From an uncultured archaeon (lineage in GTDB: Archaea; Asgardarchaeota; Thorarchaeia; Thorarchaeales; Thorarchaeaceae): 17,719 nt of DNA. The translations under genes were made by a program, and so were the position numbers. Within the stretch, counting starts at the first letter, position 1; the number at the start of each line of letters is the position of its first letter. Of this stretch, positions 1 through 16,934 are shown one piece after another. The notes under the pieces were generated by a model. That model was not told the DNA's origin. It saw only the letters and a list, made by a program, of their open reading frames with translations, and did not search any database. The stretch covers positions 1 to 17,719 of the forward strand of contig CAZSWP010000059.1 of the NCBI GenBank assembly GCA_964610875.1, read 5' to 3'.

Positions 1-3000
1 CAAATTGTTGATACGGTAGAGTCTGGTAGTGTATCATATCCTTGAACAGTAATGGTGAGATTCTCACATGCCTCGTTGCCTGCCGTATAATGGATTCTTG
101 TGGAAAGATAGTATACTCCCACCATGGATTCAGATGATTGAAGTATCAGTGTATTCTTTGTATCTCCGTTAGGTTGTGACTCTCCATCATTTTCAACATA
201 GTCCGAGGTCTTCAACAACAATTGATAATCAGAAGAAAACAGGTAGAGGTCAACAACTGTTCCAACATCTTGCCAATCTGCTCGTAAAACAAGGTTTCGC
301 ATAGTTGAATCAGTGACTTCTATTTGAAAGACTCTGGGAGTCCCCCATTCTCCTTCGATTACTCCAGGATTACTAATAGAAGGCCAGAGTCCGCCATTCT
401 CATAAGGTGTAAGTTCTGATCCCCATCCATCACTAATTGTTATGATACTTCCATCTCCATCTGTTATCGAAGCGGGTACCATATATGAGTAAGGAATGTT
501 GTGAGAATATCCAGTAGTAGAGTTTTCTAATAGAATATATCCTTCATGGAGACCCCCTTCTTCGTTACTAGGGACAGTAAGGGTGATGTCAATATTACTT
601 CCTGCACCTGCGGCAAATGATAGAGAGCTATCGATGACCTTCTCCCACAGAGTTATTGTTATTGACACACTTGTTGACTCATCGTAACTAATAGTTAAGG
701 TGGGTGTGTGTTGGAAAATGGTTGAGAGTCCATTGGGGTTAGCTATATGCAACATAAGATTACTAGAATGACCTGTCTGCCAGTTTACTAGATTCAGGTA
801 ATCTCCTTGAGATGTACTTGGATTATAATGATTTAGAACACTATCTACATAGGTGTCCTCCCAATCGTACAAGATAATCTCCGTTGAATGTCCTGTTTCG
901 ATTTGATCCGAATGCACGCTTATGGTTGCATACATAGAATCTAGAAATTCTTGATTATAGGCGCTACCTAAGATGTCACTAATATTGAAGAATCCTGGAC
1001 GTAGTTCTTCTGGTGAGAAAATATAATCATAGTATTGATACGTTACTACCTCATAGGTTAATTGTCTACTTTTTCTATAATGCCAAGCTTCGATAGTGTC
1101 AAAATTTGAAAAGCCTCTGCTAATTCTATCAAACGAATATGGTACGATTGTCATGGAAGTGGTTCCTCCTCTCTCAACAGAACCAAAGTATACACTACTC
1201 ATTCCAAAACTATCCGGTTTACTTGCGCTTGCATAAACATCAAAGGGTTGAGAGCCGGGCATTTGTCCTTCCCATACATCATTGAGTTGGTTCATGTAAT
1301 TTGCTGCACTCATTGTGTTGTGAACATAATAAGCTGCATCTGTTTCAGTTTCAATGTTTGTTATCGCTGTTTCAAGATCTATTATTCCATGACCCTGTTT
1401 GTATGAATTGTAACCAAGATCTTTTGCTGATGAGAGAAGGATTTCTTTCAATATGATTGGGTCATACGTCCATCCTGCCCAGTTCAATTTTATTGCATTA
1501 AGCATGACAGCAGCTGCACCAGCTGCTATTGAACCAGACAAGGTATTTTCCATGTTCCAATAGTAAGTATCACCAAAATCTGTCCATGTATTATGGAAGG
1601 CATTTATTGTTGCAATTCCATAACCTGGTGCTATTATATCCGGTTTTGCCATACCTGTGAACGAAGGACCTCCTGTTAATGATGAAAGTTGGTTCATACT
1701 CTTCTGTTGTGGTGTATATTCTGTGCTGTAGTATTGTGGCTGTAATGTAGAGCCAACTGATACAACGGATGCGGCATCACTGGGTGACACTCCCGACATG
1801 TAATTAGAGGTCTGATCGGATGATGACATCACAAAAAGGGTCCCAGGATATGTGGTTTCTATCAGACCTGGTGTTGACATCAAATCATAGCATAGTGATA
1901 TGAAAGCTAGCGTAGACTGATGGTCGTAATCAAGTGCAGAGTACTTCCATGAGTTCACAACAATGTCTGCTTTATGTTCTTCAGTTGCAGTACTATACTC
2001 CCAGTATCCAGATACATCATTATACTCGAAGCCAGATAGCCAGTACATAGAAGTGAGAGCATCAGATACTGTCCCTCCCTTTGTTGCAATAATCTTGGCT
2101 CCTGGTGCAACTCCTGGAAGACTGTAACCAGTTGCATTCTCGTATATGAGGTGATTATTTGCTGTTCCCTCTGATGATATTGATGACACTGCGAGATTTC
2201 CATAATTCGATTCAGAGGGAAACATTAGTGCAAAAGCCCGCGCGTTACTTGAGATTCCACAGAAGAAATCTTCTGTTATATCTGAAACAATATGGTTACT
2301 ATCATAGACCCAGCAGAACGAACCTAGACCAATGTCATCATATCCATCATCATTCAAATCTGCTGAAAGAATATTGTTTTCATCCACAGTATAGAGATAT
2401 CCTTCATTGAAATCATCTACAAAACTCCAATCCATCATATTCGAGTAAAAATCTCTAGTTACAGGATCTGTTAGGTCTGTGAGTTTATAATATCCCGCTT
2501 CATTCCACATTTTCGTCCAAGCTTTTGTGCCGTTCCAATCGATAATGACTGTGTCTCCACCCATGATGATTGCTGGCGCAAAGACCTTTGCATACTCATC
2601 TCTCCTCTGCTGGAGAACCCATCCTACACGATAGTCCTCTCCGGATGGTGCTGGTAGTTCCCAATCCTTCCACATCTCACTATCAACAAACTCTCTGAAA
2701 CTTGATATTCCCCATGCACTTTCGTACAAGGAAATGAATCCATCAAGAAGAGTCCGTGATGTACCTTCCATATGACATTCTGGGTCCCATCCGGTAACAT
2801 TGAGATAGTAATGCCCTCCCAATTCATATGTCAATGCATTTCCTTCAGAGAGCCACTGATTAGTATCTGCAACATATGATGCATTCGCGTAGAACATTTT
2901 GGTTATTCCGTAACCGGTCAAATCGTATGACATCGGTTGACCAAGTGCATCTGTTGCATGAGCATGTTGCAATTCAGGATGACTGAAATCGACTCCAGTA

Positions 3001-5210
3001 TCATGTAGCCCGATAATCACACCCGTTCCATTATATCCTGATGCATGAACATTTTCAATTCCGAGATCATCAATAACTTGAAACATGTCTGGTCTGATTT
3101 GAACTGGAAGGTTTTCTTGGTGCGTTTCTTTTGGAACGTAGGTATTGGCTGCAATATGAATAACCCCTTCTTCCTGCATGATATCATTTAGTTCATCTTT
3201 AGATGAAATTGAAGCAAAAGTCATTTGAAATGCACCTAAGTTGATAGAACCCTTATAATCATGAATACCCTCAACTGATAGAGGATTTGAATCCAGGTCT
3301 GTTATCAAAATTATACTGATTGCACCATTTCTACTCTTTACAACATCAGGACTAAGCTGATCTGAATTGATATAATCTTGAAGATATTTGTCTAGAATGC
3401 CTCTTTCTGAAATTCCCTCTATTATCGGATTCCATCTAGTAATACCTCCTGAATTATCTTCCTTTGCATTATTTGTCAGTGATTCGTAACTAGATTCAGT
3501 TGATGTTTGAAAATTCGGTGGGGGACCAGTCCTAATTCTACCGTTTGGTAATTTGAAATAGTATGGATTGTAGTTCATGTCCACATATTCTCCCGCTACA
3601 TAATCTGAAATATAGAAAGGTCCTGAGGTGACTAATTCATCAAAGCGAGGATTATACAACTGGGGATGAATTCCATTCAGTATATGCTTAGGTAGGATTC
3701 TTGCTATACAAATATCGTACAAATACCAATACGATGCTTTGTCAAATTCTAAAATGCATTTGTAATCTGTCGGTGCAAAAGCTGAATATAGATGTTCAAG
3801 CCAATCTCCACCCCATCCATGGTAATCCTGATGCTCCAAAAGATAATTGTAGGTGAAAGCAACATCTCGTGCTGATAATGGATAGCCATCAGTCCAAGAT
3901 GCATTATTTATGATGTCAAACGTAAATCGGTAATGCCCAACTGGTACAGATGGATTGTCATCATGGGTTTCTATTTGATATGAATCTGCAAGCCAATTAA
4001 TGAGATTGCCATCAGTATCAGTAAGCAGTAATGGATCATATAAATCATCCAAGACTCGTTGTGTATAAGCGCTACTAGATTGGAGTATATTGAATGTATC
4101 AAGGTCAAGTGGATTACTGATTCGAAAGGTTCCACCAAGGGGTCCGCCTGATGATTCTTTAAGCATTATCTTTTGTTTTGTCCACCATCCGTTGACGCCA
4201 ACCATTGGTGAATTTACATGACCTTCAAAAGTATCTGTCCTATATGCATTATACATTAGGTTGGAATAACAGACCACTCTGGGACATTCATAATTCAGAA
4301 TCTTCTGCATCTCGACTGCTGCATTATATACGTCGTCATAACTTGAGGAATAGAGTAATTGATCAATCCAACTATCATAAGTAGAATTTCTAAAATTCGC
4401 GAAGTTGAAATAGTCTTCATCTGCATAAGCTGACCCATATTCGGTTTCCAAGAACTCCAAGCTAAAATCTCCAAATGAAACACCTAAAAAGACAATGTCA
4501 TAGTCTCCATGGAAATACAGTCTATTTAGATATTCGTAGAAATCAGTAGGTACATATTGTGCATCAATTCCTAGAGCAACTAATGCTTCTTCAGCTATTT
4601 GACCACATTCTATTGCAATGCTGGAAGACTGTGCCACCTCAACAAGAACATCAAAATCCACTCCTGATGGAGTTTCTCTATGACCATCATCATCAATATC
4701 CAGAAAACCTGCCTCATCTAGTATCTGATTTCCTAGAGCTACATTTGATTCGTAGTACGAATATGGCAATGTGCCTTCAATAGAAAAAGGATTTACTGCC
4801 GGAACAACACCATCTTGAGGTTCTGCATCTCCATTCCATACTTGTTCAGCAACTCTCTCCTTGTCGAATGCAAAAGCGAATGCTCTACGAAATGCAGTTT
4901 CATTGAATGGATATTTTGCGGTATTTATGGTGAAATATCCATATCCATTTCGAGGAGATGATTCTACCTGGATATTCTGTGCTTCATTTAATGTAGGAAG
5001 AAAAGTAGGGTCAAGCAAGTTTCCAATCAGATCTATCTCGTCATTAATTAGAGCTAGGACCTGTTGATCATTTTGTGTTATTACTGAATATCGAATGGTA
5101 TCAACATAAGGTCCTGTCCCAGCAATGATGGATGTGCCTGAGACATTGGAAGATGCTGGTATTACTATAATCATTAAGAAGCCAATCAGGCATAATATCC
5201 GCTTATACAC
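1..5210 (-). CDS. Partial (3' end outside window) giant secreted fusion protein: family-5 ABC peptide-binding domain + catalytically degenerate S8 subtilase; paralogue of 5482..13242, >1736 aa
   Basis: Manual translation from GTG at 5210 (preceded by GGTGTGGGAG) gives MYKRILCLIGFLMIIVIPASSNVSGTSIIAGTGPYVDTIRYSVITQNDQQVLALIND, matching GTGPFVDKIYYDIITPVDEQVLALQDN of the 2586-aa ORF. Every segment spot-checked is in the same frame: RNGYGYFTINT, GGTFRISN, IIGLHDTGVDFSHPEL, IAAGAAAVML, and LTITVQGYDTLPDSTVSTI at the window edge. The ORF track reports no stop-terminated ORF in this frame, consistent with a frame open to base 1. Confidence 0.93.
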   Translation of the reverse strand, partial: MYKRILCLIGFLMIIVIPASSNVSGTSIIAGTGPYVDTIRYSVITQNDQQVLALINDEIDLIGNLLDPTFLPTLNEAQNIQVESSPRNGYGYFTINTAKYPFNETAFRRAFAFAFDKERVAEQVWNGDAEPQDGVVPAVNPFSIEGTLPYSYYESNVALGNQILDEAGFLDIDDDGHRETPSGVDFDVLVEVAQSSSIAIECGQIAEEALVALGIDAQYVPTDFYEYLNRLYFHGDYDIVFLGVSFGDFSLEFLETEYGSAYADEDYFNFANFRNSTYDSWIDQLLYSSSYDDVYNAAVEMQKILNYECPRVVCYSNLMYNAYRTDTFEGHVNSPMVGVNGWWTKQKIMLKESSGGPLGGTFRISNPLDLDTFNILQSSSAYTQRVLDDLYDPLLLTDTDGNLINWLADSYQIETHDDNPSVPVGHYRFTFDIINNASWTDGYPLSARDVAFTYNYLLEHQDYHGWGGDWLEHLYSAFAPTDYKCILEFDKASYWYLYDICIARILPKHILNGIHPQLYNPRFDELVTSGPFYISDYVAGEYVDMNYNPYYFKLPNGRIRTGPPPNFQTSTESSYESLTNNAKEDNSGGITRWNPIIEGISERGILDKYLQDYINSDQLSPDVVKSRNGAISIILITDLDSNPLSVEGIHDYKGSINLGAFQMTFASISSKDELNDIMQEEGVIHIAANTYVPKETHQENLPVQIRPDMFQVIDDLGIENVHASGYNGTGVIIGLHDTGVDFSHPELQHAHATDALGQPMSYDLTGYGITKMFYANASYVADTNQWLSEGNALTYELGGHYYLNVTGWDPECHMEGTSRTLLDGFISLYESAWGISSFREFVDSEMWKDWELPAPSGEDYRVGWVLQQRRDEYAKVFAPAIIMGGDTVIIDWNGTKAWTKMWNEAGYYKLTDLTDPVTRDFYSNMMDWSFVDDFNEGYLYTVDENNILSADLNDDGYDDIGLGSFCWVYDSNHIVSDITEDFFCGISSNARAFALMFPSESNYGNLAVSSISSEGTANNHLIYENATGYSLPGVAPGAKIIATKGGTVSDALTSMYWLSGFEYNDVSGYWEYSTATEEHKADIVVNSWKYSALDYDHQSTLAFISLCYDLMSTPGLIETTYPGTLFVMSSSDQTSNYMSGVSPSDAASVVSVGSTLQPQYYSTEYTPQQKSMNQLSSLTGGPSFTGMAKPDIIAPGYGIATINAFHNTWTDFGDTYYWNMENTLSGSIAAGAAAVMLNAIKLNWAGWTYDPIILKEILLSSAKDLGYNSYKQGHGIIDLETAITNIETETDAAYYVHNTMSAANYMNQLNDVWEGQMPGSQPFDVYASASKPDSFGMSSVYFGSVERGGTTSMTIVPYSFDRISRGFSNFDTIEAWHYRKSRQLTYEVVTYQYYDYIFSPEELRPGFFNISDILGSAYNQEFLDSMYATISVHSDQIETGHSTEIILYDWEDTYVDSVLNHYNPSTSQGDYLNLVNWQTGHSSNLMLHIANPNGLSTIFQHTPTLTISYDESTSVSITITLWEKVIDSSLSFAAGAGSNIDITLTVPSNEEGGLHEGYILLENSTTGYSHNIPYSYMVPASITDGDGSIITISDGWGSELTPYENGGLWPSISNPGVIEGEWGTPRVFQIEVTDSTMRNLVLRADWQDVGTVVDLYLFSSDYQLLLKTSDYVENDGESQPNGDTKNTLILQSSESMVGVYYLSTRIHYTAGNEACENLTITVQGYDTLPDSTVSTI
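4508..4554. repeat. 47-bp exact direct repeat, copy 1 (copy 2 at 12534..12580)
   Basis: catggaaatacagtctatttagatattcgtagaaatcagtaggtaca is identical at both places. It extends to 56/57 (4498..4554 vs 12524..12580) and encodes VPTDFYEYLNRLYFH in both paralogues. Confidence 0.95.
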
Positions 5211-5250
5211 AGTGCTCCCACACCTGAACTAGAATAGCTGCAAATCATCC

Positions 5251-5258
5251 TAATAAAA
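5251..5258 (-). promoter_or_regulatory. Possible archaeal TATA box for the downstream paralogue
   Basis: TTTTATTA on the minus strand, 41-48 nt upstream of the GTG at 5210 and preceded by purine-rich GAGAAG. The AT-rich background makes this weak. Confidence 0.3.
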
Positions 5259-5272
5259 CTTCTCAGAAATCT

Positions 5273-5403
5273 GGCTCTGTGTGAAAAGTCGATGGAAAGA
5301 TACTGATTGGAACTATTCACTCCATATCTTGCACGAGTACCAACCTCATTGTTTGTTTTTCTGACTGTGCTCATTCACGGTTGCGGACTTTTCACCCAGC
5401 TCC
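5273..5403. mobile_element. 131-bp MITE (non-autonomous IS derivative) with 18-bp terminal inverted repeats and 9-bp target-site duplication
   Basis: Left end GGCTCTGTGTGAAAAGTC (5273..5290) vs reverse complement of right end GGAGCTGGGTGAAAAGTC (5386..5403): 15/18 identical, inner 10 bp perfect. The direct repeat CAGAAATCT abuts both ends exactly (5264..5272 and 5404..5412). No transposase inside. Confidence 0.85.
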
Positions 5404-5431
5404 CAGAAATCTAATATTACTCAATAGAATT

Positions 5432-5462
5432 GATGAGAGCTGATGTTGATTCAACTCTCATC
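5432..5462 (-). terminator. Stem-loop 20 nt downstream of the stop of the 2586-aa gene (possible terminator or 3' RNA structure)
   Basis: Minus strand GATGAGAGTTGA-atcaaca-TCAGCTCTCATC forms a 12-bp stem with one G-U pair. There is no strong U-tract after it. Confidence 0.4.
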
Positions 5463-5481
5463 TATATCATCAATTTGAGTT

Positions 5482-8400
5482 TCATGAACCCATCATTGAC
5501 TCCCAATCAGATGCTTGTGAACTCCGGTATATCTTCACGATGAAATATATGATGATAACAATAGAACCTATGGTGATCACTAGTGAGATTACTACAGTCA
5601 TTGTATCCATTTCACCAGGGTCAACAGTTGATGTATCACTAGTTGTATCAGTTGTAGAGGTTTGTGATGTTGTGCCAGCTTCCTCTACTGTGACCAATAC
5701 ATGGTCAGATGCAATATTGCCAGATGAATCCCGCACAGTGATGTTAAACACATACACTCCTGGTAGTAGGTCATCTACATCTACAGTAATTCCTACTCCT
5801 GATGCCCAATTTCCCATCTGAACTATGGTCCCATTCCGTGTGACTGTATAATCACCCGGATGTGCATCTGTTGGAGTCCAGACAATCTCATTGCCTGTTT
5901 CTCCTTCTGTATACGTGATGTCTTCTGGACTATCAACTTCAGGGTTAGTTACGTCATTTACGTCCACCCAGACTGAATCCGATGCAACATTATCATAATC
6001 ATCTGTCACTACCAATGTGAAATTATATCGCCCTATCTGGAGGAAATCAATACTTGCTTCAAGAGATGAAGATGTTCCTGTCCATGTCCCTGACTGTATT
6101 ATAGAGCCATTTCGATAGAGTGTAAATGTATTTGGATGAGAATCTGAGAAGTTCCACTTAAGCACATGACCTGTTGTTCCTTCATTGTATGAATAATCAG
6201 CAGGTCCTTCAATTGCAGGTGGTGTTCCATCAACAACAGTCACCCACACTATATCTGATGCCGTATTACCATATGTATCTTCAACTACTAATGTGAAATT
6301 GTAATCTCCCAATGCAAGACCATCTATATCAACACTAATTGATTCACTTGAAGAGTTCCAGAGACCATTCACATAGGTACTACCATCAAGATACACCGTA
6401 TATAATGAAGGATTGAAGTCCTCTGGAGTCCAAATAATGGAGTTTCCTGAACTACCTTCACTATAGGTTACATCTTCAGGACTATCAATATCAGGTGCTG
6501 TAGTATCTGGAATCACATAGACAGTAACATTGTCTGTAACGCTTTTACCATCAGTATTGTTCACAAAGCACATGAATTCATATGTCCCTTCCGTAAGCCC
6601 TCCCACATTGATGGTTATTGAGCTCCCATCCCAAACACCACCCTCAACAAATGTACTATCTCTATAAACCTCATAAACCGATGGACTTGACTCTAGGGGT
6701 GTCCATGTGAGATAGACTGTTGCATTTCCAAATTCATAGGTGATGTCATCTGGATGATCAATTATCGGTGCATCACCAAGTACCGTCACAATACTTGTTT
6801 GAATTGTTACAAGTCCATCACTATCAATAGCTTGGATGGTGTAGTTGTATTCTCCTTGAGTCAGTGAGTCAAGACTAATTGTAGTAACATTAACAACATC
6901 GAGCCACACCCAAGTCGAATCAAGAACATCATCGATGTAGAGATTGATTGTTCCTGGATGAAGGTCAGAAATACACCATTTTAGTTCACGACCTATTTCT
7001 CCAAGATTGAAGGTCTGATCACCTCCACCAAAGATGAATGGTGTGACAAGTGGTGTTGCTGCAGAACCCGCAGTAAAGGTTGTATCCGACTCATCCTGAT
7101 TTACCATATTACGATCAGTCACACGGATTATTATACTATAATTTGTCATATACTGCCATGGATCACAATCCCATGAGTATGGAGACGTACTAACATTAGA
7201 TGCAAGAAGCTCATAGGTTGCACCGCCATCATTGGATATCAAGATGTCATAAATTGGATCGTAATCTGATGGATTACCAGAAGATGCCGTCCAGTTAATC
7301 GAATTAGTTCCTGTCCAAACTTCTCCACCATTGGGGCTTGAGAGTGATATGTCTGGCACAAAATAGTTGTTGAATGTGACATTGTTGATTTCCACATAGA
7401 ATTCAACATTAGTATCTGTATAGCCATAGAGATGGACATCTCTTGTGCCATTGTTGCCAAGATAATAGGTATCGTAAGACAAGTTCTTTTCAGTGTTCTC
7501 GATTTTCAATGTTGAACGTGTGTCTACCTCTAGAGAATAATCTACACCTGATTGATATGCCCAAGCCCAATTGAATACAACAATAGCTATGTCCATATTA
7601 TGGTCAGCAGTGAATTGGCCATATTCATCCACATCCGCATCTCCATCATCTACTGAGATGAATGCGCTTACACCTATTTCATCTAAGGTGACAATATCAT
7701 CTAAATTGGAGTCCCACCATTCATAAACTTCGAATGAAGGATCAAGTCCATTTGCATGGAGCGTAACTCGTACACTGTCATATGCACGAATACCTTTGAT
7801 GCCCTCCCAAACATAGATACTGGTTTCAGAAAGTGGGATTGGCCATTGGTCATATCCTTGAGGATCAACATATGTTCCTGTCCGAACCTCGTAAATACCA
7901 GTCACGAAATGGATACTTGATGAAGTAATATCATACTCTGGCAAAGATGGGGGTTGGGTTATTGACCAGGTATTCTCGAAGACAATATGATCTCCTGTGA
8001 GTAAATCATTATCTGTTACTGGCTGAGGCGTAGGTGAGTCATTAGATGTCCATTCTGGGCTAACACTTCCTGTGGGTAATGTATCATAACATGATAGACT
8101 TACTGAAACATTCTCGAATGCTACACTACCGTTGAATTTATGAACAGCGATCTCAACATAGTATGTTCCTTCAATAGAACCACCACCATCATATATAATG
8201 ACATTCTTTGTAGATCCTGTAGGTTCGGGGTGATAGCCACTATCCCAATTATCCTCGCTACTAACAAGCAGGTTATAGGTTGGAGATCTGAGATATACAT
8301 CTATTACTGTACCTTCATTTTGCCATTCTACATCCATGATGAGGTATTGAGCACTAGGATTGGAGATATTCACTTTGAATGTACGTGCTCCACCCCAATC

Positions 8401-11400
8401 ACATTTCGCAGTTGAATCAATATCGAATGAAGCACTTAATGAACCACTTTCATAAGGCGTCATTTCATTACCAACAGCATTTGCTACGATGTGCTCAGAA
8501 CCATCAATCTCCGCGATGTTCTCTATCACCATATACGAGTATGGAATGTTATGAGAATACCCTGAAGAAATGCTTTCGAGGTGCAAGAACCCTTGATGAA
8601 TTCCATTCTCTGCGTTATTTGGCAAATCTAAGGTTACGTTGATTTTCCCAGCAGAACCAGGGGCTACCAGAATATTGGTATCTAACACTTTCTCCCACAA
8701 TGTCACTGTGATATGAATCGGATTGCCATTACCTAAGGATGCTGAACTATCCGCAACAACTAATGTGGGTGTATAATCAAAGACATTGCTCAAACCGCTA
8801 GGATGTGCAACTCTAATCCATTTGTTGTTACAATGATTATAGTCCCATCCAAGTAACTGCAATAGATCTCCATCTGAATAGGTGGTGTTGTAATAGTTCA
8901 TTGTATCATCATCAATGGTGTCATCCCAATCAAACAGTCTTGCGCTACTAATAAAGTCCATATTTGCCTCATCAAAGTGTACATTTATTGTTGCATAAGG
9001 TGCATTCAACATGTTTTGTATAGCTGTATATCCCAGCTCTTCTGTAAGATTGTAGTATCCGTATCTCTCGACACTATCACCAAATGCTAGGTCTTCATAA
9101 AGGAATGTTGTTGTATTGAATGTATACTGATGGCTCCTACGATAATACCATCCTTCAACGTTATCGAAATTAGTGATATTCCTAATCAAACCATCATAAG
9201 AGAATGTAGATAAGAAGACTTCTGAACTAGAACCTGGGTATACACTACCAAAGTAGATGCTGCTCGTTCCTTGACCAACCGGTTTAGTTCCATCTGAATA
9301 CACCCCAAATGGGTCACAATCTATCATCCAATAATCCCATGCTTGATACATGTCACTCATATAGTTTTCAAAACTATCTTCAGTATGAATGAAATACTGA
9401 TTGCTCTGATTAGATTCAATGAACAAAACGGCACTTTCGACGTCAATTAAGCCATGTCCTTGAGCAAATGCATCCAATCCCATATCTGTCGCAGATGAAA
9501 TTAGAATTTCTTTTAGTGTAACAGGGTTGTATATCCATCCACCCCAATTGGTTTCTATTGCATCCAGGATTAGTGCTGCTGCACCTGCTGCAATTGGGCA
9601 AGCTAGACTTGTTCCTTGCCACCACAGGTAGCTCTCGCCCACACCTGTCCATACATTATGGAACGAATCTGGATTTGCTCCTCTAAATCCTGGTGCCATG
9701 ATATCTGGTTTTGATATTCCTGTATATGATGGACCATTGGATGAAAAGCTAATTTGTTGTCCAATCTCTTGGAATGGTCCAAACGCATGTTCATAATAGT
9801 GTGGAGTCATGGCTGCGCCAACTGCCACAACTGACGCTGCATCACCGGGAGCTCCTCCCGTCATATAATCAGCTCCACTGTTACCCTCAGCGAATAGAAA
9901 CAACGTTCCAGGATAGAATGGATCTACGACGCCTGGTGCAGACATCAAATCCCAGAATAATGTAAGATAGGTTAAGTCCAAGTATCCACCATTGACGTAG
10001 CCCCATGAATTTGAAATTATGTCTGCTTTGTGTCTCTGTCCCTCACTCGTATACTCCCAATACGATGAAGTGGCATTATAGTGGAATCCCGCAGCCCAGA
10101 ATTGAGAACCGATATTGGCACCAGAAGTGAGCCCCTTTGATACAATTAGTTTTGAACCATTAGCCACTCCGGGAAGTTTGTAGAGTGTTCCATTCTCGTA
10201 TACATTATGGTCAACTTCTCCTCGAGAAGCGATTGCGGCTGAACACCAATGACCATGATTTGTATCTGATGGGAACATCAGTGAGAATGCTCTCCCGTTA
10301 CTTGAAACACCACAATAGAGGTAATCGGTCACATCAGTTGCATAGGCTTGACTGTCGTATGACCAACTGAAGGAACCTAGTCCAATATCATCAATGCCAT
10401 TATCATCGAGGTCTGCGGCAAATATTGGATTACCTGTTACGGTATATTCGTGCCCTTCATTGATATCATCAACAAAACTCCAATCCATCAAATCTGTATA
10501 GTAATATTGAATAGTTGAATTATTGATATCTTCTGTTTCGTAATGTATCACATTGTTCCACATTTTGGTCCAGGCTTTTGTGCCATTCCAATCAATTACT
10601 ACCTCTGTTCCGTTTACAATAATTGATGGAGCGAATATCTTCGCATACTCCTCCATTCTTTGTTGAAACACCCAACCAACTCTATAGTCCTGTGTAGTGA
10701 CTGAAGGTAGTTCCCAATCTTTCCACATCTGGTCATAGACAAATTCACTGATGTTTTCTATACCATATGCATTTGCATAAGCATCGATGAAGAAAGATAA
10801 TAGATTACTTTCAGTTGCTTGATTATTGCAAATAGGGTCCCAACTTGTAACATTCAGGTAGACTTTTCCTCCTGACTCATAGGTCAAGAGATTTCCGTCA
10901 TCAAGCCATGTCTGCACATCCGCAACAGCTGTAGCATTAGCTATAACCATCTTCGTGATCCCATAAGATGTTGGATCAAAGGATGTCGGATATCCAAGTC
11001 CATCGATATACATTGCATCCTGTAAGTCTGGCTGACTAAAATCAACTCCTGTGTCATCAACACCAACAACAACACCTGAACCATCATAACCCATTTGATG
11101 TACCGCTGTTACTCCAAGTTCATCATTTATTTTGAACATGTCTAGTCCCGAGTCTAATGGTGGATTTGAATTATCTAATGATTTCGAAAGATAAACATCT
11201 GCTGATAGCTTTATGACATTGTCATTAGCAACTAGAAAATCAAGATCCTTGGATGAATCGAATGATGCCAGTACCATCTGGATTGGTCCCAATTCTGCAG
11301 CCCATTGAATCTCATTGAACCCTTCAATATCAAATGGATTAGCATCTCGTTTCAAAAGGGCGATTATACTGATAGAACCATCCCTTCTTTTCACAACATC

Positions 11401-13242
11401 TTGTGATAATTCCTTGAAATTCAGAAAATCATTGAGATAAGAGTCTAGTTTCTCATCTGCTGACATACCATCTACGATTGTGGTCCATTTTGCTTCTACA
11501 TCTGTGATTGGTTCATCAGGTTCGCTTTCGGGTGATATTGCTGCTGGAACACTCGGAGGAGTTCCCGTACCTTCTGCTTCTGATGGCAGTTTGAAATAGT
11601 ATGGATTTCTAGTTAGTTCGATATAATTTCCTGGAGAGTGGTCTGAAACATAAAATGGTCCGGATGAAACCACTTCGGTATAATCTGGATTGTAGGACGT
11701 AGGATCTTGAAGACTCCATATGTGTTTTGGAAGAATTGGAATCTCAGCAATATGACTGAAATGCCAATATGATTCACTTTTGAATTCAACAATGAAGCGG
11801 TAATCTGTCAGGGAATATGCAGCATACAAATCTGAAGTATATGGTGTGGCTTGAGTTAATCCATGTTCATTGAGATAGTTGAACGTAAAAGCAACATCTC
11901 TCGCACTTAGTGGTCTTCCATCTGTCCATGTTGCATTTTTCACTAAATCAATTGTTATTCTTGTATGCCCAGATGGTACTAGTGCATTATCAGCATGAGT
12001 TTCAATGAGATATGAATCTGCAAGCCAGTTCATGAGATTTCCATCTGGATCTCTTCTAAATAGTGAGTCATATAGTTCATCTAGCACATGTTCTGTATAT
12101 AGACTATTAGTTACTAGAGGATTGAATGTGTCTATATCAAGAGCAAGTGATCTTCTGAGAGTTCCACCAATTGGTCCTCCTGATATGAGACTCACCTTTT
12201 GATTGGTCCACCATCCTTTTACGCCATTTACTACATCGTTTGTGAAACCCTCAAATGTGTCCGTTCGATAGGCGTTGATATATTCATTTTCGTAACAAAT
12301 TACCATTGGACAATCATATATCCATATCTTCTGCATCTCAATTGCAGCATCATAGACATCACTATAACTTGTAGAGTACAACAATTGGTCGCGCCAAGAA
12401 TCATATGTTGCATTTTGCCAATTGGGGAAGTTATAATATGGCTCATCTGCATATTCAGACCAATATTCGTATGCCATCCAATCTACGTCGAAATTGCCAA
12501 ATGAGCTTCCAAGAAATGCCATATCATAGTCTTCATGGAAATACAGTCTATTTAGATATTCGTAGAAATCAGTAGGTACAGCTGTTGCAGAGATATTCAA
12601 AGCAGTAAGAGCTTCTTCAGCCTTCATAGCAACTTCAATTGCTATGCTTGATGACTGGGCCGCTTCAATTACAACATCGAATTCAGTACCATCTGGAGCT
12701 TCTCTAATATTATCTGAATCAACATCACCAAATCCTGCTGCATCAAGAAGTTGGTTTGCTATAGCAATATTTGCATCATAGTATGAGTAAGATAGCTGGC
12801 TTTCAACTGAGAACGGGTTGATTTTTGGTATCAGACTATCACATGGCTCTGAAAAACTATCCCAAATATCCGTTGAAATAGCGTTCTTATCTAATGCAAA
12901 AGAAAATGCTCTTCGAAATGAGGTTATGTTGAAAGGGTATTTTGCCGTGTTTATAGTTATGTATCCATAACCATTTCGTAATGTATTCTCGAGTTCAATA
13001 TTAGATGTCTGATTAAGTTGGTCATAAAACGACGGGTCCACATAATCTCCAATCAAGTCGATATTATTATCCTGTAAAGCTAAGACCTGCTCATCAACTG
13101 GTGTAATGATATCGTAGTATATCTTGTCTACAAATGGTCCTGTCCCACCAGACGTTTCGTATGACTCTGCTGAAGCAGTGAATGTTCCAAGGCACAGAAT
13201 GATTATAGTAGATATAACAATGAATTTCAGATAGTTAGACAT
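5482..13242 (-). CDS. 2586-aa membrane-anchored surface protein: family-5 ABC peptide-binding domain fused to a pyrolysin-like S8 serine protease, with Ig-like stalk and C-terminal TM helix
   Basis: Signal peptide (aa 1-~25). SBP_bac_5 motifs aa ~33-552: PFNITSFRRAFSFALDK, ANQLLDAAG, GGTLRRSL, TWTDGRPLSARDVAFTF, SGPF, RNPYYF. Pro/acidic linker, then prodomain-like aa ~585-701. Subtilase motifs: DDTG (D730), HGHWC (H996), SNSWG, EGNSG (N1121), FSSNGP, KPDIMAPG, GTSLACP (S1212), QGHGLID. Then beta-sandwich domains, a Thr/Ser linker and TM VVISLVITIGSIVIIIYFIV. GAGGGA lies upstream of the ATG. Confidence 0.95.
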   Translation of the reverse strand: MSNYLKFIVISTIIILCLGTFTASAESYETSGGTGPFVDKIYYDIITPVDEQVLALQDNNIDLIGDYVDPSFYDQLNQTSNIELENTLRNGYGYITINTAKYPFNITSFRRAFSFALDKNAISTDIWDSFSEPCDSLIPKINPFSVESQLSYSYYDANIAIANQLLDAAGFGDVDSDNIREAPDGTEFDVVIEAAQSSSIAIEVAMKAEEALTALNISATAVPTDFYEYLNRLYFHEDYDMAFLGSSFGNFDVDWMAYEYWSEYADEPYYNFPNWQNATYDSWRDQLLYSTSYSDVYDAAIEMQKIWIYDCPMVICYENEYINAYRTDTFEGFTNDVVNGVKGWWTNQKVSLISGGPIGGTLRRSLALDIDTFNPLVTNSLYTEHVLDELYDSLFRRDPDGNLMNWLADSYLIETHADNALVPSGHTRITIDLVKNATWTDGRPLSARDVAFTFNYLNEHGLTQATPYTSDLYAAYSLTDYRFIVEFKSESYWHFSHIAEIPILPKHIWSLQDPTSYNPDYTEVVSSGPFYVSDHSPGNYIELTRNPYYFKLPSEAEGTGTPPSVPAAISPESEPDEPITDVEAKWTTIVDGMSADEKLDSYLNDFLNFKELSQDVVKRRDGSISIIALLKRDANPFDIEGFNEIQWAAELGPIQMVLASFDSSKDLDFLVANDNVIKLSADVYLSKSLDNSNPPLDSGLDMFKINDELGVTAVHQMGYDGSGVVVGVDDTGVDFSQPDLQDAMYIDGLGYPTSFDPTSYGITKMVIANATAVADVQTWLDDGNLLTYESGGKVYLNVTSWDPICNNQATESNLLSFFIDAYANAYGIENISEFVYDQMWKDWELPSVTTQDYRVGWVFQQRMEEYAKIFAPSIIVNGTEVVIDWNGTKAWTKMWNNVIHYETEDINNSTIQYYYTDLMDWSFVDDINEGHEYTVTGNPIFAADLDDNGIDDIGLGSFSWSYDSQAYATDVTDYLYCGVSSNGRAFSLMFPSDTNHGHWCSAAIASRGEVDHNVYENGTLYKLPGVANGSKLIVSKGLTSGANIGSQFWAAGFHYNATSSYWEYTSEGQRHKADIISNSWGYVNGGYLDLTYLTLFWDLMSAPGVVDPFYPGTLFLFAEGNSGADYMTGGAPGDAASVVAVGAAMTPHYYEHAFGPFQEIGQQISFSSNGPSYTGISKPDIMAPGFRGANPDSFHNVWTGVGESYLWWQGTSLACPIAAGAAALILDAIETNWGGWIYNPVTLKEILISSATDMGLDAFAQGHGLIDVESAVLFIESNQSNQYFIHTEDSFENYMSDMYQAWDYWMIDCDPFGVYSDGTKPVGQGTSSIYFGSVYPGSSSEVFLSTFSYDGLIRNITNFDNVEGWYYRRSHQYTFNTTTFLYEDLAFGDSVERYGYYNLTEELGYTAIQNMLNAPYATINVHFDEANMDFISSARLFDWDDTIDDDTMNYYNTTYSDGDLLQLLGWDYNHCNNKWIRVAHPSGLSNVFDYTPTLVVADSSASLGNGNPIHITVTLWEKVLDTNILVAPGSAGKINVTLDLPNNAENGIHQGFLHLESISSGYSHNIPYSYMVIENIAEIDGSEHIVANAVGNEMTPYESGSLSASFDIDSTAKCDWGGARTFKVNISNPSAQYLIMDVEWQNEGTVIDVYLRSPTYNLLVSSEDNWDSGYHPEPTGSTKNVIIYDGGGSIEGTYYVEIAVHKFNGSVAFENVSVSLSCYDTLPTGSVSPEWTSNDSPTPQPVTDNDLLTGDHIVFENTWSITQPPSLPEYDITSSSIHFVTGIYEVRTGTYVDPQGYDQWPIPLSETSIYVWEGIKGIRAYDSVRVTLHANGLDPSFEVYEWWDSNLDDIVTLDEIGVSAFISVDDGDADVDEYGQFTADHNMDIAIVVFNWAWAYQSGVDYSLEVDTRSTLKIENTEKNLSYDTYYLGNNGTRDVHLYGYTDTNVEFYVEINNVTFNNYFVPDISLSSPNGGEVWTGTNSINWTASSGNPSDYDPIYDILISNDGGATYELLASNVSTSPYSWDCDPWQYMTNYSIIIRVTDRNMVNQDESDTTFTAGSAATPLVTPFIFGGGDQTFNLGEIGRELKWCISDLHPGTINLYIDDVLDSTWVWLDVVNVTTISLDSLTQGEYNYTIQAIDSDGLVTIQTSIVTVLGDAPIIDHPDDITYEFGNATVYLTWTPLESSPSVYEVYRDSTFVEGGVWDGSSITINVGGLTEGTYEFMCFVNNTDGKSVTDNVTVYVIPDTTAPDIDSPEDVTYSEGSSGNSIIWTPEDFNPSLYTVYLDGSTYVNGLWNSSSESISVDIDGLALGDYNFTLVVEDTYGNTASDIVWVTVVDGTPPAIEGPADYSYNEGTTGHVLKWNFSDSHPNTFTLYRNGSIIQSGTWTGTSSSLEASIDFLQIGRYNFTLVVTDDYDNVASDSVWVDVNDVTNPEVDSPEDITYTEGETGNEIVWTPTDAHPGDYTVTRNGTIVQMGNWASGVGITVDVDDLLPGVYVFNITVRDSSGNIASDHVLVTVEEAGTTSQTSTTDTTSDTSTVDPGEMDTMTVVISLVITIGSIVIIIYFIVKIYRSSQASDWESMMGS
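5680..7041 (-). repeat. Five tandem ~91-aa Ig-like/beta-sandwich protein repeats (stalk)
   Basis: Recurring consensus P-x-I-D-x-P-x-D-x-T-Y-x-E-G...W...D-x-x-P...G-x-W...L-x-x-G-x-Y-N-F-T-L-x-V-x-D-x-x-G-N-x-A-S-D-x-V-x-V-x-V. Units start at PFIF, APII, APDI, PPAI and NPEV. Confidence 0.9.
12534..12580. repeat. 47-bp exact direct repeat, copy 2 (copy 1 at 4508..4554)
   Basis: Identical to 4508..4554. Confidence 0.95.
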
Positions 13243-13515: not shown

Positions 13516-14739
13516 ATGGTTGATAAATCAAAAGTTTTCTTCGGCTCTGTTTTTGCAGGAAAACCTGACAGGTTCGCAAATTTGAGCGTTAAATTAGATA
13601 AAATTCTGGAGCATCTAGACCTTAGCACGATTGAAAAGAAAGACAAAGTTGCAATTAAAATGCATCTTGGATTCAACGACGGTTATCAAACAGTTCCGGT
13701 ATTCTTTGTGCGTCGCATTGCTGACGCGGTAAAGAAAGCTGGAGGGTACCCTTTTGTGACAGATAATCCAACAGCGGTCTATAATGCAGTCTATCGTGGT
13801 TATACTTCTGAAACTTGTGGCTGTCCCATCATACCTATTGCTGGAGTTAAGGATGGTTACACAACCGACCAAGAAGTGGGTTACAAAGGTGTGGAAAAAA
13901 TAGCGGCTGCTGGTGCTCTGCTTGATGCTGATGTACTCATTAATCTTACACATTCTAAGGGTCATGGCTCCTGTGGCTATGGTGGCGCTTTCAAGAATAT
14001 TGCATTAGGGGGGTATAGTGGTCCATCACGATGGTACAAGATTCATGGTGTAGTGAATTATGACAAATACTTTGACGAAGAAAAGATGACAAAAGAGCAC
14101 ATGATGAAAATTCGTGAGACATGCCCGCGAGATGCCGCTGAATGGAACGATGAAAAGAACAGCGGCAGAATATTGTTCTATGCCTGTGATCAATGTCATG
14201 GGATTGAAAACAAACCCTGTATAGAAGCAGATGGTGGATTGACAAGTCTCTCAATAAATGAGGATAACTTTTACTCATTCCAGGAACTCATGGCATTTGC
14301 GGCCAAGAATATTCTCGATAGCTTCGACAAGAAGAAATTGTTCCATCTCAATTTTCTGATGGATATCACGCCATTCTGTGACTGTATGGGTATGGGAATG
14401 CCTCCTGTGATTGATGATATTGGAATAGCAGGGAGTAGAGATATTGTTGCAGCTGATGTTGCATCATTAGACCTCATAGCAGAAACCGGACTAAATGAAC
14501 AATTGGTGAAAAAGATTCCAGAAGTCTATATGCGAGTAAATCCCAATCTCTCATCAGACTTGCATCCTTTCCAACTTCTTCATGGTCCATACAAGAATCC
14601 ATACAAAGTTGCAGAGTATGGAGTACAATTAGGTCTGGGTAGTATGGAGTATGAGCTAGTTGAAATCCTATCAGCTGAAGAAACAGCTAAAATGGATGCA
14701 CCAGAGCATGTTTATGAAGGTGGAGCAACTTTCTTCTAG
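13516..14739 (+). CDS. DUF362-family uncharacterised Fe-S centre protein with ferredoxin-like insert
   Basis: Family-typical motifs VAIKMHLG, HSKGHGSCGYGGAFKNIALG, DITPFCDC and DIGIAGSRDIVAADVASLDL. Internal TCP...CDQC-x7-C segment. Confidence 0.85.
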   Translation: MVDKSKVFFGSVFAGKPDRFANLSVKLDKILEHLDLSTIEKKDKVAIKMHLGFNDGYQTVPVFFVRRIADAVKKAGGYPFVTDNPTAVYNAVYRGYTSETCGCPIIPIAGVKDGYTTDQEVGYKGVEKIAAAGALLDADVLINLTHSKGHGSCGYGGAFKNIALGGYSGPSRWYKIHGVVNYDKYFDEEKMTKEHMMKIRETCPRDAAEWNDEKNSGRILFYACDQCHGIENKPCIEADGGLTSLSINEDNFYSFQELMAFAAKNILDSFDKKKLFHLNFLMDITPFCDCMGMGMPPVIDDIGIAGSRDIVAADVASLDLIAETGLNEQLVKKIPEVYMRVNPNLSSDLHPFQLLHGPYKNPYKVAEYGVQLGLGSMEYELVEILSAEETAKMDAPEHVYEGGATFF

Positions 14740-14856: not shown

Positions 14857-15627
14857 TTACATCCAATATCCGGAACGACTATAGTATTCGTAAAGTATCG
14901 ATTCATCCTCCCGAGTTATTTCACTTTTGTATATGAATTCGGGAGCATTTTCCACTTTTTCTTTAGATACATCTACAGTGATCTTCTGTTCTATCCATTT
15001 CATAGATTCTATCCAATCCACTGGGATTAGTCGGTGTTCTTTATCAAACCAGTCGCTGACATCTATAATGAGATAACGTATCTTCCAATCCATTGCATTG
15101 AAAAGAATATCTTCAACGTTACCAAATTCTTCGGTATTAGATACCACACTGTAATCAAGTATCTCTTTGGAACTTCTTAGATGTATTGTCTTCTCTGGGT
15201 GTTCTTCTTTTCCCTTTGACTTCTTGACTAATTTGTAGCGTGTTGCTCCTGATTCAATCATTGATACTGGTATTATCGGAGTTGGTGCAAGGGGCATTAG
15301 CCCTGGTCTGAATGGTGTCCAGCCATAATATTGGTGAAGTTGAAGTAGTCGCTTCTCTGATACAGGTTCACTCAAATTAATTGTTGGGCTTTGCTCTACT
15401 TTCTTTTTGGTTACATTTGCTTCAATTTGTTCATTGTCCCAGTCAGGTATCTTCAAGCACTGTGTTGACAAAAGAATATGCCTTTCTCTCAGCCAATCCC
15501 CAACATCAATTATAAGATAGTCTATGTCCCATGATCTATCATCGAAAAGGACCGATGATACGTTGCCAATTGTTTCATTATCAATGGTTACTTCTAAATC
15601 ATATAGTCTTTCTAATTCATTAAGCAT
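14857..15627 (-). CDS. Tandem (two-domain) PRC-barrel protein, ~256 aa
   Basis: Two homologous halves: IGNVSSVLFDDRSWDIDYLIIDVGDWL...SPTI...LHQYYG and FGNVEDILFNAMDWKIRYLIIDVSDWF...APEF...LYEYYS. Start moved from 15708 to the ATG at 15627 (MLNELERL), because it aligns with the second half (HLRSSKEI) and has a TATA box at -32..-25. Confidence 0.85.
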   Translation of the reverse strand: MLNELERLYDLEVTIDNETIGNVSSVLFDDRSWDIDYLIIDVGDWLRERHILLSTQCLKIPDWDNEQIEANVTKKKVEQSPTINLSEPVSEKRLLQLHQYYGWTPFRPGLMPLAPTPIIPVSMIESGATRYKLVKKSKGKEEHPEKTIHLRSSKEILDYSVVSNTEEFGNVEDILFNAMDWKIRYLIIDVSDWFDKEHRLIPVDWIESMKWIEQKITVDVSKEKVENAPEFIYKSEITREDESILYEYYSRSGYWM

Positions 15628-15651
15628 TCTTTCTTCTCTCGGTTCTTCACT

Positions 15652-15659
15652 ATATTTAA
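15652..15659 (-). promoter_or_regulatory. TATA box for a probably leaderless PRC-barrel transcript
   Basis: TTAAATAT(A) on the minus strand, 25-32 nt upstream of ATG 15627. This is the usual spacing for leaderless archaeal mRNAs. Confidence 0.5.
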
Positions 15660-15743
15660 GCAAAGCGCCTCTTATAATTCCTGGGGAATCGCCAAAGGAA
15701 CATTTCAAGCTCTTTTTTGAATGGCGATTGAATCTTATGTGAA

Positions 15744-16934
15744 TTATACCTCAAATTCAATGAAGCGTTCAATATGTTTTCTACTGTGTTTCTCACTCAG
15801 TTTTGTTTCCTTATGTTCAATTATTCTCCTCTCTAATCTGTCAAGAGCGAGCGAATAGGTTTCTTCAACACTCCAAGCTTCTGCAGAACTATAATATTGC
15901 GTATGTGCAGTCCTAAATTGAAGTCGGCACTGAATCAACTGATTTCCCTTAGAAATTGAACCGTGTCGTTTAAGATAAACGAATAAATCTCCTACTCCGA
16001 CTACATCCCTGTATCTCTTAGAGAATGACTCAAATTTTCGCTGCATAGCTTTTCGTTCCTCTTCCGTCATCCTAATACCTGGTTTCATAGAAAATTGTAC
16101 TCTTATTCGTCTTGATTCCATGCCTCTCTGAGCAATAGGTTCTAAAAGGTCTCGTTTGGTCACGATTCCAGTTACTCTGTCATCATCAACAACCACAACG
16201 CTTGAGATGTTATATTCTCTCATTTTTCGATGCGCATCGCTGAGAGTTTCTGTTGGTTTAGCAGCTATCACAGGTGAAGACATTACACTACTTACAGGGA
16301 TGTGCAGAAGGTTTGATGTTTCCCCTGCCCTTTCACCATGTCCACCACGATCTAACTGGGAAAAACCCTCTTTCTGTCGCGTCATACTTTTGAAAATGAT
16401 ACTGAATATATCATGAATGCTCACGATACCCACGAGTTTTCCATCATCCTTAACTGGAAGATGTGAAATGCCATAAGTCCTAAACAAATCGAGAATTCTT
16501 GCGACGGTATCATCCCGACGAGCTGAAAGTGGATTCTTTGTCATGATTGATTCAAGAGGAATTGAGTTCCACTCTTCATCGGTACCTTGAGTTATAATAT
16601 CTTGAACTGAGATGAAACCTATATGTTTCTCTCCAGAAAATACTGGCAAAATCGGTGTTTGTACTTCAATCATCAGTCTTGCTGCTTCAGCAAGGGTTTC
16701 TGTATGTTGAATAGATGGAAGAGTTATCATTTGTTTCTCCACCTTGCTGGATGTTGGATCCACTCTTGATTTTCTTAATCTCCTTCTAATAATTACTCCT
16801 TGATAGTTTCCCTTTGAATCCTCTACAATTAGTGCTGGAGGTTCTATTTTCTTCAGTCTACTAATTGCCGCAGAAAGTTGTTCATTCTTGTCTATTTTTT
16901 CATATTCACTAAGTGTAATCTCACTAATGCGCAT
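15744..16934 (-). CDS. Four-CBS-domain protein with C-terminal HPF/RaiA (S30AE)-like domain; probable archaeal ribosome hibernation factor
   Basis: aa 1-~268 holds four CBS repeats (e.g. IMTKNP...GISHLPVKDDGKLVGIVSIHD; VMSSPV...ISSVVVVDDDRVTGIVTKRDLL). aa 277-376 follows the HPF beta-alpha-beta-beta-beta-alpha pattern, ending SAEAWSVEETYSLALDRLERRIIEHKE. Confidence 0.8.
   Translation of the reverse strand: MRISEITLSEYEKIDKNEQLSAAISRLKKIEPPALIVEDSKGNYQGVIIRRRLRKSRVDPTSSKVEKQMITLPSIQHTETLAEAARLMIEVQTPILPVFSGEKHIGFISVQDIITQGTDEEWNSIPLESIMTKNPLSARRDDTVARILDLFRTYGISHLPVKDDGKLVGIVSIHDIFSIIFKSMTRQKEGFSQLDRGGHGERAGETSNLLHIPVSSVMSSPVIAAKPTETLSDAHRKMREYNISSVVVVDDDRVTGIVTKRDLLEPIAQRGMESRRIRVQFSMKPGIRMTEEERKAMQRKFESFSKRYRDVVGVGDLFVYLKRHGSISKGNQLIQCRLQFRTAHTQYYSSAEAWSVEETYSLALDRLERRIIEHKETKLSEKHSRKHIERFIEFEV

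Follow-up and report, generated by a model that had tools for sequence, protein, structure and literature searches.

Two tandem fusions of a circularly permuted substrate-binding protein and a subtilase, one with and one without the catalytic set, in a Thorarchaeota genome

Results

A tandem pair of giant fused genes

The window analysed here (17,719 nucleotides) is the entire contig C59 (CAZSWP010000059.1, assembly GCA_964610875.1) of a metagenome-assembled genome (MAG) from an uncultured Thorarchaeaceae archaeon, with 3.75 Mb in 124 contigs, 95% completeness and 5.8% estimated contamination. It carries two very large genes, gene 1 (protein P0001) and gene 2 (P0002), each of which joins a family-5 substrate-binding protein (SBP) module to a domain of the subtilase family S8 (Table 1). 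A first-pass annotation of the same DNA had described them as co-oriented, collinear paralogues of the same architecture, and open reading frames (ORFs), Pfam matches and an alignment that runs collinearly across 1736 residues at 48% identity agree with this description. A hydrophobic N-terminal signal sequence was found on both proteins, gene 2 has a TATA-like element of its own, TTTTATTA, read about 45 nt upstream of its GTG start, and nucleotide composition is uniform along the contig. The nearest database proteins are named by NCBI 'Candidatus Thorarchaeota archaeon' or 'Promethearchaeota archaeon'.

The binding module is a circularly permuted family-5 SBP

Both proteins matched the SBP_bac_5 profile (PF00496) well above its cut-off of 32.4 bits, with 156 and 163 bits, in an unusual order: amino acids (aa) 33-264 of P0001 match profile positions 143-364, and aa 406-550 match positions 5-141. 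P0002 has its SBP_bac_5 stretches in the same swapped order, so that each module opens with the C-terminal two thirds of the profile and closes with its N-terminal third. A profile built from 26 permuted modules and compared with solved family-5 SBP chains gave the same picture, its positions 392-534 corresponding to residues 56-192 of a PDB chain and its positions 75-319 to residues 264-516. The AlphaFold2 (AF2) model of the module is a single compact globule (pLDDT 89.4, pTM 0.86), and its top Foldseek matches were AppA, DppA, OppA and chitin-oligosaccharide SBPs, at probability 1.0. Foldseek covered only about 310 of the 550 SBP residues, as is expected when a sequential aligner meets a permuted fold. 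The module is thus a circularly permuted, not a canonical, family-5 (Opp/Dpp-type) SBP: the assignment made in the first-pass annotation stands as regards the profile match and the three-domain fold of family 5 (cluster C), and fails as regards the canonical segment order.

The permuted modules make up a large Asgard family. A search at E <= 1e-30 returned 275 representatives (50% identity clusters), and nearly all of the best 150 of these 275 matched as one stretch, which for most of them spanned nearly the full query. A protein-atlas search found generic SBP5 clusters only, below 0.8, and one fused protein is annotated by NCBI merely as 'ABC transporter substrate-binding protein', which refers to ATP-binding cassette (ABC) transport.

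Several members of the family are giant proteins. P0010 (2427 aa) is a surface protein with a permuted SBP and without a protease, P0110 (1590 aa) combines the permuted SBP with Laminin_G_3, and P0098 (6240 aa) carries it at residues 4357-4810. P0023 (4308 aa) has six SBP_bac_5 stretches, one of which (1578-2013) runs in canonical order, as would be expected where tandem permuted modules abut; this arrangement suggests that the permutation arose by duplication with later trimming.

An intact protease domain and one without its catalytic set

Peptidase_S8 (PF00082) scored 108 bits in P0001 and 60 bits in P0002 (cut-off 21.8), and the PDB and Foldseek matches of this part were subtilisins, KP-43 and TPP II; by profile and by subtilisin fold, both proteins belong to family S8. 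An alignment with 14 homologues served to read the catalytic positions. In P0001 the catalytic Asp, His and Ser, in this order, and the oxyanion Asn are intact (D730/H996/N1121/S1212), while P0002 retains D737 and carries Y1003, D1132 and T1223 at the other three sites, which deprives it of the catalytic feature of the family. The first-pass annotation had read one complete catalytic set and a second copy lacking three of four residues in a frame open over more than 1700 codons, and both the alignment and the 1736-codon ORF bear this out. Conserved Gly, Thr and Pro residues next to these sites, in the GN-G and GTS-P motifs, are missing from P0002 as well. Every catalytic replacement lies a single nucleotide from the active codon; three replacements at exactly these sites, together with changes in the surrounding motifs, are not what one would expect of sequencing errors. 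Judged by these residues, the product of gene 2 has an S8 fold and would not be a classical serine protease. A sedolisin-like chemistry, with the Asp at the oxyanion position, was considered for gene 2 and rejected, its His site being Tyr rather than Glu and its nucleophile Thr.

An insert of 265 aa separates D730 from H996, as in subtilases of the pyrolysin / TPP II type, and about 1250 residues follow the S8 domain in gene 1, including PKD-like repeats and a transmembrane (TM) helix. Gene 1 therefore combines the traits of pyrolysins and cell-envelope proteinases: a large insert, a long C-terminal beta-sandwich extension and envelope anchoring. Its beta-rich region (aa 1266-2066) is shared with stand-alone S8 homologues of about 1600 aa, and the Fn3-like PF06280 match remained under the cut-off (E 0.001-0.004). 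What lies between SBP and S8 corresponds in alignments to the N-terminus of stand-alone S8 homologues, and structures of pro-subtilisins can be aligned through it, over about 700 columns. In gene 1, this segment (aa 566-715) is predicted, with moderate model confidence, to consist of a small alpha/beta domain and, between it and S8, a disordered linker; a Pfam scan found no match there, Inhibitor_I9 included. We regard it as a propeptide-like domain, not proven; the reading of the first-pass annotation as a prodomain-like segment is based on position and on the predicted small domain, without a Pfam counterpart.

Distribution and history of the fusion

We surveyed 87 species-level genomes of the order, from 17 genera, among which the source genus is represented by the source genome alone. 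The first-pass annotation had proposed to look for the fusion across archaeal genomes, and in this survey it was recurrent: a full-length SBP-S8 match was found in 7 of the 87 genomes and 6 of the 17 genera, with two copies solely in the source genome. Additional fused forms were found among metagenome proteins (P0003-P0009 and P0024).

The fused SBP modules group together in a single clade (support 99/99, present in 100% of bootstrap trees), apart from the permease-linked modules and on longer branches. On the S8 tree, fused forms are interspersed with stand-alone proteases in at least three S8 lineages, and monophyly of the fused S8 parts was rejected (log-likelihood (lnL) difference 569; approximately unbiased (AU) test, p-AU 6e-88). 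Two histories would fit these trees: an old fusion that happened once, with the SBP lost several times since, or one SBP lineage moving between S8 paralogues. The association with the SBP has been retained across S8 lineages that are now 35-45% identical, and under either history this retention is the best evidence here for a functional link between the two parts. From its distribution and phylogeny, we read the SBP-S8 fusion as a recurrent and old Thorarchaeota family.

Three individual cases were observed along the way. P0003 (1815 aa, from an ENA metagenome) has an SBP that groups with P0001 (96/77) and an S8 part that groups with the stand-alone P0013 of contig C21 (support 99), and it looks like a mosaic from recombination between fused and stand-alone genes. 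In G016, a genome of another genus, a gene for a 1260-aa protein made of a permuted SBP and PKD/Ig repeats, without protease, lies directly upstream of a 2597-aa fused gene (L028:13875-17654, contig C50, reverse strand), so that a tethered, protease-free SBP beside an active fusion occurs there by a different route. In G006, the fused gene (L031:239-16649, contig C47) is split by a one-base frame change near GGGCGG in the S8 insert, at about locus position 2660; a read-through product would have about 5500 aa, with His, Asn and Ser intact, and the split may be an assembly error or a real break.

Links of the permuted family to transport

The source genome has three canonical SBP5 genes, each adjoining permeases, and about ten permuted SBP genes. 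On contig C5 (L033:4907-12246, reverse strand), genes for an OppC-like (537 aa), an OppB-like (357 aa) and a second OppC-like protein (534 aa) are followed, as the last gene of the cluster, by a stand-alone permuted SBP (616 aa) that is 56% identical to the module of gene 1; no ABC ATPase gene was seen among ORFs of at least 150 aa in the 16 kb of C5 that were read. Stand-alone permuted paralogues lie next to permease genes also in G008, G024, G019 and G014. Because stand-alone members adjoin Opp-type permeases, the permuted family includes transporter receptors. The fused modules are 55-59% identical to the permease-linked SBPs and keep all 48 family-invariant columns that these share. By sequence, the closest solved relatives of the module profile are chitooligosaccharide binders (E 1.6e-37), a mannoside binder (4.9e-34) and the nonapeptide binder AppA (7.4e-34), with OppA and DppA far behind.

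Origin of gene 2 and the constraint on it

The S8 tree places P0001 and P0002 as sisters (support 100), with branch lengths of 0.37 and 0.75, that of P0002 being twice as long; the SBP-module tree leaves this relation unresolved and does not reject it (AU p 0.35). No orthologue of P0002 was found in the 87 genomes of the order or in a collection of 5.8 billion proteins, in which its nearest relative is P0001 (45%). The catalytic D/H/N/S were intact in all 12 other fused sequences checked (P0003-P0009, G016, G007, G019, G095, G042 and the frameshifted G006 gene), some of which duplicate one another (G016 equals P0004, for example). Since the inactive copy has no orthologue and the other fused proteins are intact, the pair is a lineage-specific tandem duplication and not a conserved system. 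The first-pass annotation had envisaged conserved tandem pairs of an active and a dead copy and had itself counted absence from close relatives against them; at genus level and above this idea fails, the dead copy having been found in the source genome only.

We then compared gene 2 with gene 1 codon by codon. The ratio of nonsynonymous to synonymous substitution rates (dN/dS, Nei-Gojobori) was 0.19 overall and 0.20-0.33 by region, a rough bound only, as dS is saturated (infinite in two regions). The first-pass annotation had counted a ratio near 1 against its reading, and the values obtained, with this limit, lie well below it. More weight falls on the pattern of retained positions, counted among those conserved at 90% or more in 17 homologues. 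P0002 keeps 88% of them within the SBP, 95% within the insert of S8 and 96% in the part after S8, whereas in the catalytic, C-terminal half of S8 it keeps 74%, against 96% in gene 1. Its SBP has all 48 family-invariant columns, and its frame runs through 1736 stop-free codons in DNA of about 40% GC. Gene 2 is not decaying, given its open frame, its low dN/dS and its conserved positions kept outside the catalytic half, and the pattern indicates a constraint relaxed specifically on catalysis. Gene 2 has the marks of a pseudoprotease in that its catalytic residues are lost while its fold and other domains are constrained, and it departs from the usual picture in that it is not conserved across related species.

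The 3' end of gene 2 is cut off by the contig end. The last 1.57 kb of contig C22 (L032:14414-15982, reverse strand) contain an open frame of 522-523 aa that is 49% identical to, and collinear with, residues 1788-2251 of P0001, with two PKD-like repeats (five in P0001), a TM helix and a stop. As it begins about 56 residues past the break point of P0002, this frame is probably the missing C-terminus of the inactive copy, which would bring the protein to about 2300 aa. Genes for phosphoenolpyruvate (PEP) carboxykinase and aldehyde:ferredoxin oxidoreductase lie downstream of it.

The density of N-glycosylation sequons (N-X-S/T) is 1.62 per 100 aa in the active copy and 0.69 in the inactive one, which hints at different glycosylation or exposure of the two proteins.

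Three further genes of the window neighbour the pair and have no evident link to it: a DUF362 protein gene at 13516-14739 (forward strand), a PRC-barrel protein gene at 14857-15708 (reverse strand) and a gene for a CBS-domain protein with a weak S30AE-like C-terminus at 15744-16934 (reverse strand).

Table 1 Features of the two fused genes in the window, with positions on contig C59.
Feature	Position	Strand	Content	Basis
Gene 1 (P0001)	5482..13242	-	2586 aa, complete; permuted-SBP/S8 fusion, catalytic set intact, C-terminal membrane anchor	ORF, Pfam, residue alignment
Gene 1 signal peptide	13168..13242	-	aa 1-25; hydrophobic segment 3-26, then ASA-ES	
Gene 1 circularly permuted family-5 SBP module	11548..13161	-	aa 28-565	Pfam, PDB matches, AF2, Foldseek
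Gene 1 Pro/acidic linker and propeptide-like domain	11098..11547	-	aa 566-715	Alignment to stand-alone S8, model
Gene 1 S8 catalytic domain	9448..11097	-	aa 716-1265; PF00082 at aa 721-1264	PDB and motif alignments
Gene 1 D730	11053-11055	-	Catalytic Asp codon	
Gene 1 H996	10255-10257	-	Catalytic His codon	
Gene 1 N1121	9880-9882	-	Oxyanion Asn codon	
Gene 1 S1212	9607-9609	-	Nucleophile Ser codon	
Gene 1 beta-rich region 3' of S8	7045..9447	-	aa 1266-2066	Weak Fn3-like PF06280, homology to C21 stand-alone S8
Gene 1 PKD/Ig-like repeats	5680..7044	-	aa 2067-2521; five repeats of ~92 aa	K319L-like_PKD, 4 stretches, E 8e-19
Gene 1 3' end	5482..5679	-	Ser/Thr-rich linker, TM helix (aa 2545-2573), short basic tail, stop	Hydropathy scan, translation
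Spacer between gene 1 and gene 2	5211..5481	-	271 nt, intergenic	
Gene 2 (P0002)	3..5210	-	1736 aa, open at contig end (3' end cut); GTG start; pseudoprotease paralogue	
Gene 2 permuted SBP module	3495..5129	-	aa 28-572; 59% identity to gene 1 module	Pfam
Gene 2 linker and propeptide-like domain	3045..3494	-	aa 573-722; collinear with gene 1, 35% identity	
Gene 2 S8-fold domain without catalytic set	1383..3044	-		Residue alignment
Gene 2 D737	3000-3002	-	Catalytic Asp retained	
Gene 2 Y1003	2202-2204	-	TAT, at catalytic His site	
Gene 2 D1132	1815-1817	-	GAT, at oxyanion Asn site	
Gene 2 T1223	1542-1544	-	ACC, at nucleophile Ser site	
Gene 2 beta-rich region	3..1382	-	aa 1277-1736, continues past contig end	

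Discussion

Detrital protein is considered to be one of the food sources of Thorarchaeota and other sediment Asgard archaea. In the reading that we favour, although we hold it at a little less than even confidence, gene 1 would encode an anchored protease with a ligand-binding SBP that feeds an Opp-type permease encoded elsewhere, and gene 2 a retained non-catalytic binder. Both products would be giant surface proteins specific to Thorarchaeota, held by a C-terminal TM helix and built, in order, of a cleavable signal peptide, a permuted SBP, a propeptide-like domain, an S8 domain resembling pyrolysin and cell-envelope proteinases, and a beta-sandwich/PKD stalk. As a putative active, membrane-anchored envelope protease, gene 1 would hold an oligomeric ligand, most likely peptides, in its SBP module beside the catalytic domain, thereby coupling extracellular proteolysis to capture of the products, with uptake through an Opp-type permease whose candidate is suggested by the C5 operon, where the closest stand-alone SBP is encoded. 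Gene 2 is a tandem duplicate of this lineage that lost the His, the oxyanion Asn and the Ser nucleophile; purifying selection would have preserved its SBP module and stalk, so that it may serve at the surface as a binder without catalysis. Such a physical coupling of proteolysis and peptide capture ('cut-and-capture'), which the first-pass annotation had already put forward, is plausible on the sequence evidence. An ambitious version of it, in which a true Asgard surface cut-and-capture machine catches the peptides released by the protease in a tethered, permuted OppA-like module and passes them to a dedicated Opp-type permease with two large OppC-like subunits, and the pseudoprotease serves as a substrate holder or tethered receptor paired with the active enzyme, seems to us improbable.

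Several observations weigh against the favoured reading. Transporter genes are absent from the window, and no permease gene lies on contig C22 either. The best solved sequence matches of the SBP module are oligosaccharide binders, so that the ligand could be a peptide or an oligosaccharide. The fused modules make up a faster-evolving clade of their own, apart from the permease-linked ones, which fits a changed role, and some 2000 residues separate the SBP, at the far end of the protein, from the membrane anchor. Removal of the propeptide, should it take place here as it does in other subtilases, would detach the SBP from the protease. As to gene 2, the saturated dS leaves its dN/dS a loose measure of selection, and a copy that occurs in the source genome alone cannot, as far as the genomes compared here indicate, be essential to the mechanism of the family.

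Some of these observations are shared by the principal competing explanation, in which the SBP is a targeting or adhesion module that, in the manner of a carbohydrate-binding module, attaches to polymer ends or glycans and keeps the protease at its substrate or at a surface matrix, with no hand-off to a transporter and with the inactive copy as an adhesin or binder. The separate, faster clade of the fused modules, the chitooligosaccharide and mannoside binders among the nearest solved relatives, and the many giant surface proteins that have a permuted SBP and no protease (the 1260-aa SBP and PKD gene of G016, P0010, P0023, P0098 and P0110) would all be expected under it. However, the fused modules keep the 48 family-invariant columns at 55-59% identity to permease-linked SBPs, their repeated retention together with the protease fits a peptide-related role, and no glycoside hydrolase is present nearby; we consider this explanation rather unlikely, while giving it serious attention. 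It is a different matter whether the SBP stays attached at all. Subtilases in general are known to remove their propeptide autocatalytically, and the stretch that links SBP to S8 can be aligned with the N-termini of stand-alone S8 homologues and with pro-subtilisins, its predicted form being a small alpha/beta domain with a disordered linker. SBP and propeptide might thus be cleaved off together at maturation, either to co-secrete a free SBP or as an enlarged intramolecular chaperone/inhibitor, and the inactive copy, incapable of self-processing, would stay a full-length tethered SBP unless gene 1 cut it in trans. Against this stand the missing Inhibitor_I9 match, the moderate model confidence in that very segment and the cost of losing a 560-aa module into sediment pore water, and we take such a cleavage to be distinctly unlikely.

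Two simpler accounts concern the pair itself. Gene 2 might be a non-functional relic of duplication heading for decay: it has lost three of four catalytic residues, each by one nucleotide, its branch is twice the length of that of gene 1, it is absent from all other genomes searched and it has fewer N-glycosylation sequons. Yet 1736, and probably about 2300, stop-free codons at 48% identity to the sister indicate an old divergence, it is in the catalytic half that lost conserved positions cluster, with 88-96% retained in the other parts, dN/dS lies well under 1, and the signal peptide and a promoter-like TATA box are retained, which makes decay very improbable. That the pair is an assembly chimera or a contaminant contig we find scarcely credible: the MAG is fragmented into 124 contigs with 5.8% estimated contamination and gene 2 is cut by a contig end, but two proteins only 48% identical do not fit a repeat that was collapsed or duplicated, the contig is even in composition, and the close relatives of both modules all belong to the same archaeal family.

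The recurrent fusion constitutes 'Rosetta-stone' evidence for joint action of an Opp-type binding module and an envelope protease. Circular permutation sets apart a large family, of at least 275 clusters at 50% identity, that is used in two ways, as transporter receptor and as module of giant surface proteins; in the open-access literature searched, we found no paper on permuted family-5 SBPs or on SBP-subtilase fusions. The active and inactive copies offer a natural experiment on the role of the non-catalytic parts and, being seen together in one MAG only, are not presented here as a conserved system. New here are the permuted SBP, the distribution and clade pattern of the fusion, and the inactive copy in one genome, with its constraint pattern and its probable C-terminus on C22.

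Among known systems, the CspBA and CspC proteins of Clostridioides difficile combine an active subtilase with retained, functional pseudoprotease paralogues (PMC7200643, PMC6636752). As in our pair, these are paralogous subtilases in which the triad is kept in one and lost in others, a resemblance in principle only: the pseudoproteases of the Csp group show conservation across species and function in signalling for spore germination, whereas the inactive copy described here occurs in one genome. The likeness to pyrolysin and TPP II is structural and lies in the 265-aa insert between Asp and His, the long C-terminal extensions and the predicted envelope binding, and TPP II (3lxu) is among both the sequence and the fold matches; core identity to solved members is, however, about 15-28%, and to our knowledge no N-terminal SBP module is known in enzymes of this type.

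Sulfolobus SBPs follow a pattern of bacterial-type signal peptide, Ser/Thr-rich linker and C-terminal TM anchor. Gene 1 resembles archaeal SBPs of the oligopeptide class in its signal peptide, its Ser/Thr-rich linker, its TM helix and its basic tail, and differs from them in the permutation of its SBP and in the approximately 1950 residues of protease and stalk that lie between SBP and anchor. In the cultured Asgard archaeon Promethearchaeum syntrophicum, family-5 SBPs are major, abundant, glycosylated surface proteins (PMC11284389).

The closest functional parallel is bacterial. In lactococci, the large anchored S8 protease PrtP acts at the cell surface, and the family-5 protein OppA captures peptides for an ABC importer, an unfused form of cut-and-capture. 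The Thorarchaeota arrangement differs in that both functions would reside on one polypeptide, the SBP is permuted, the anchor is an archaeal C-terminal TM helix and the transporter genes lie elsewhere. For the cell-envelope proteinase (CEP) a model has been published (PMC7783315). With an anchored S8 protease bearing C-terminal beta-sandwich domains and a family-5 SBP common to both, PrtP/Opp serves as the working analogue for the fusion.

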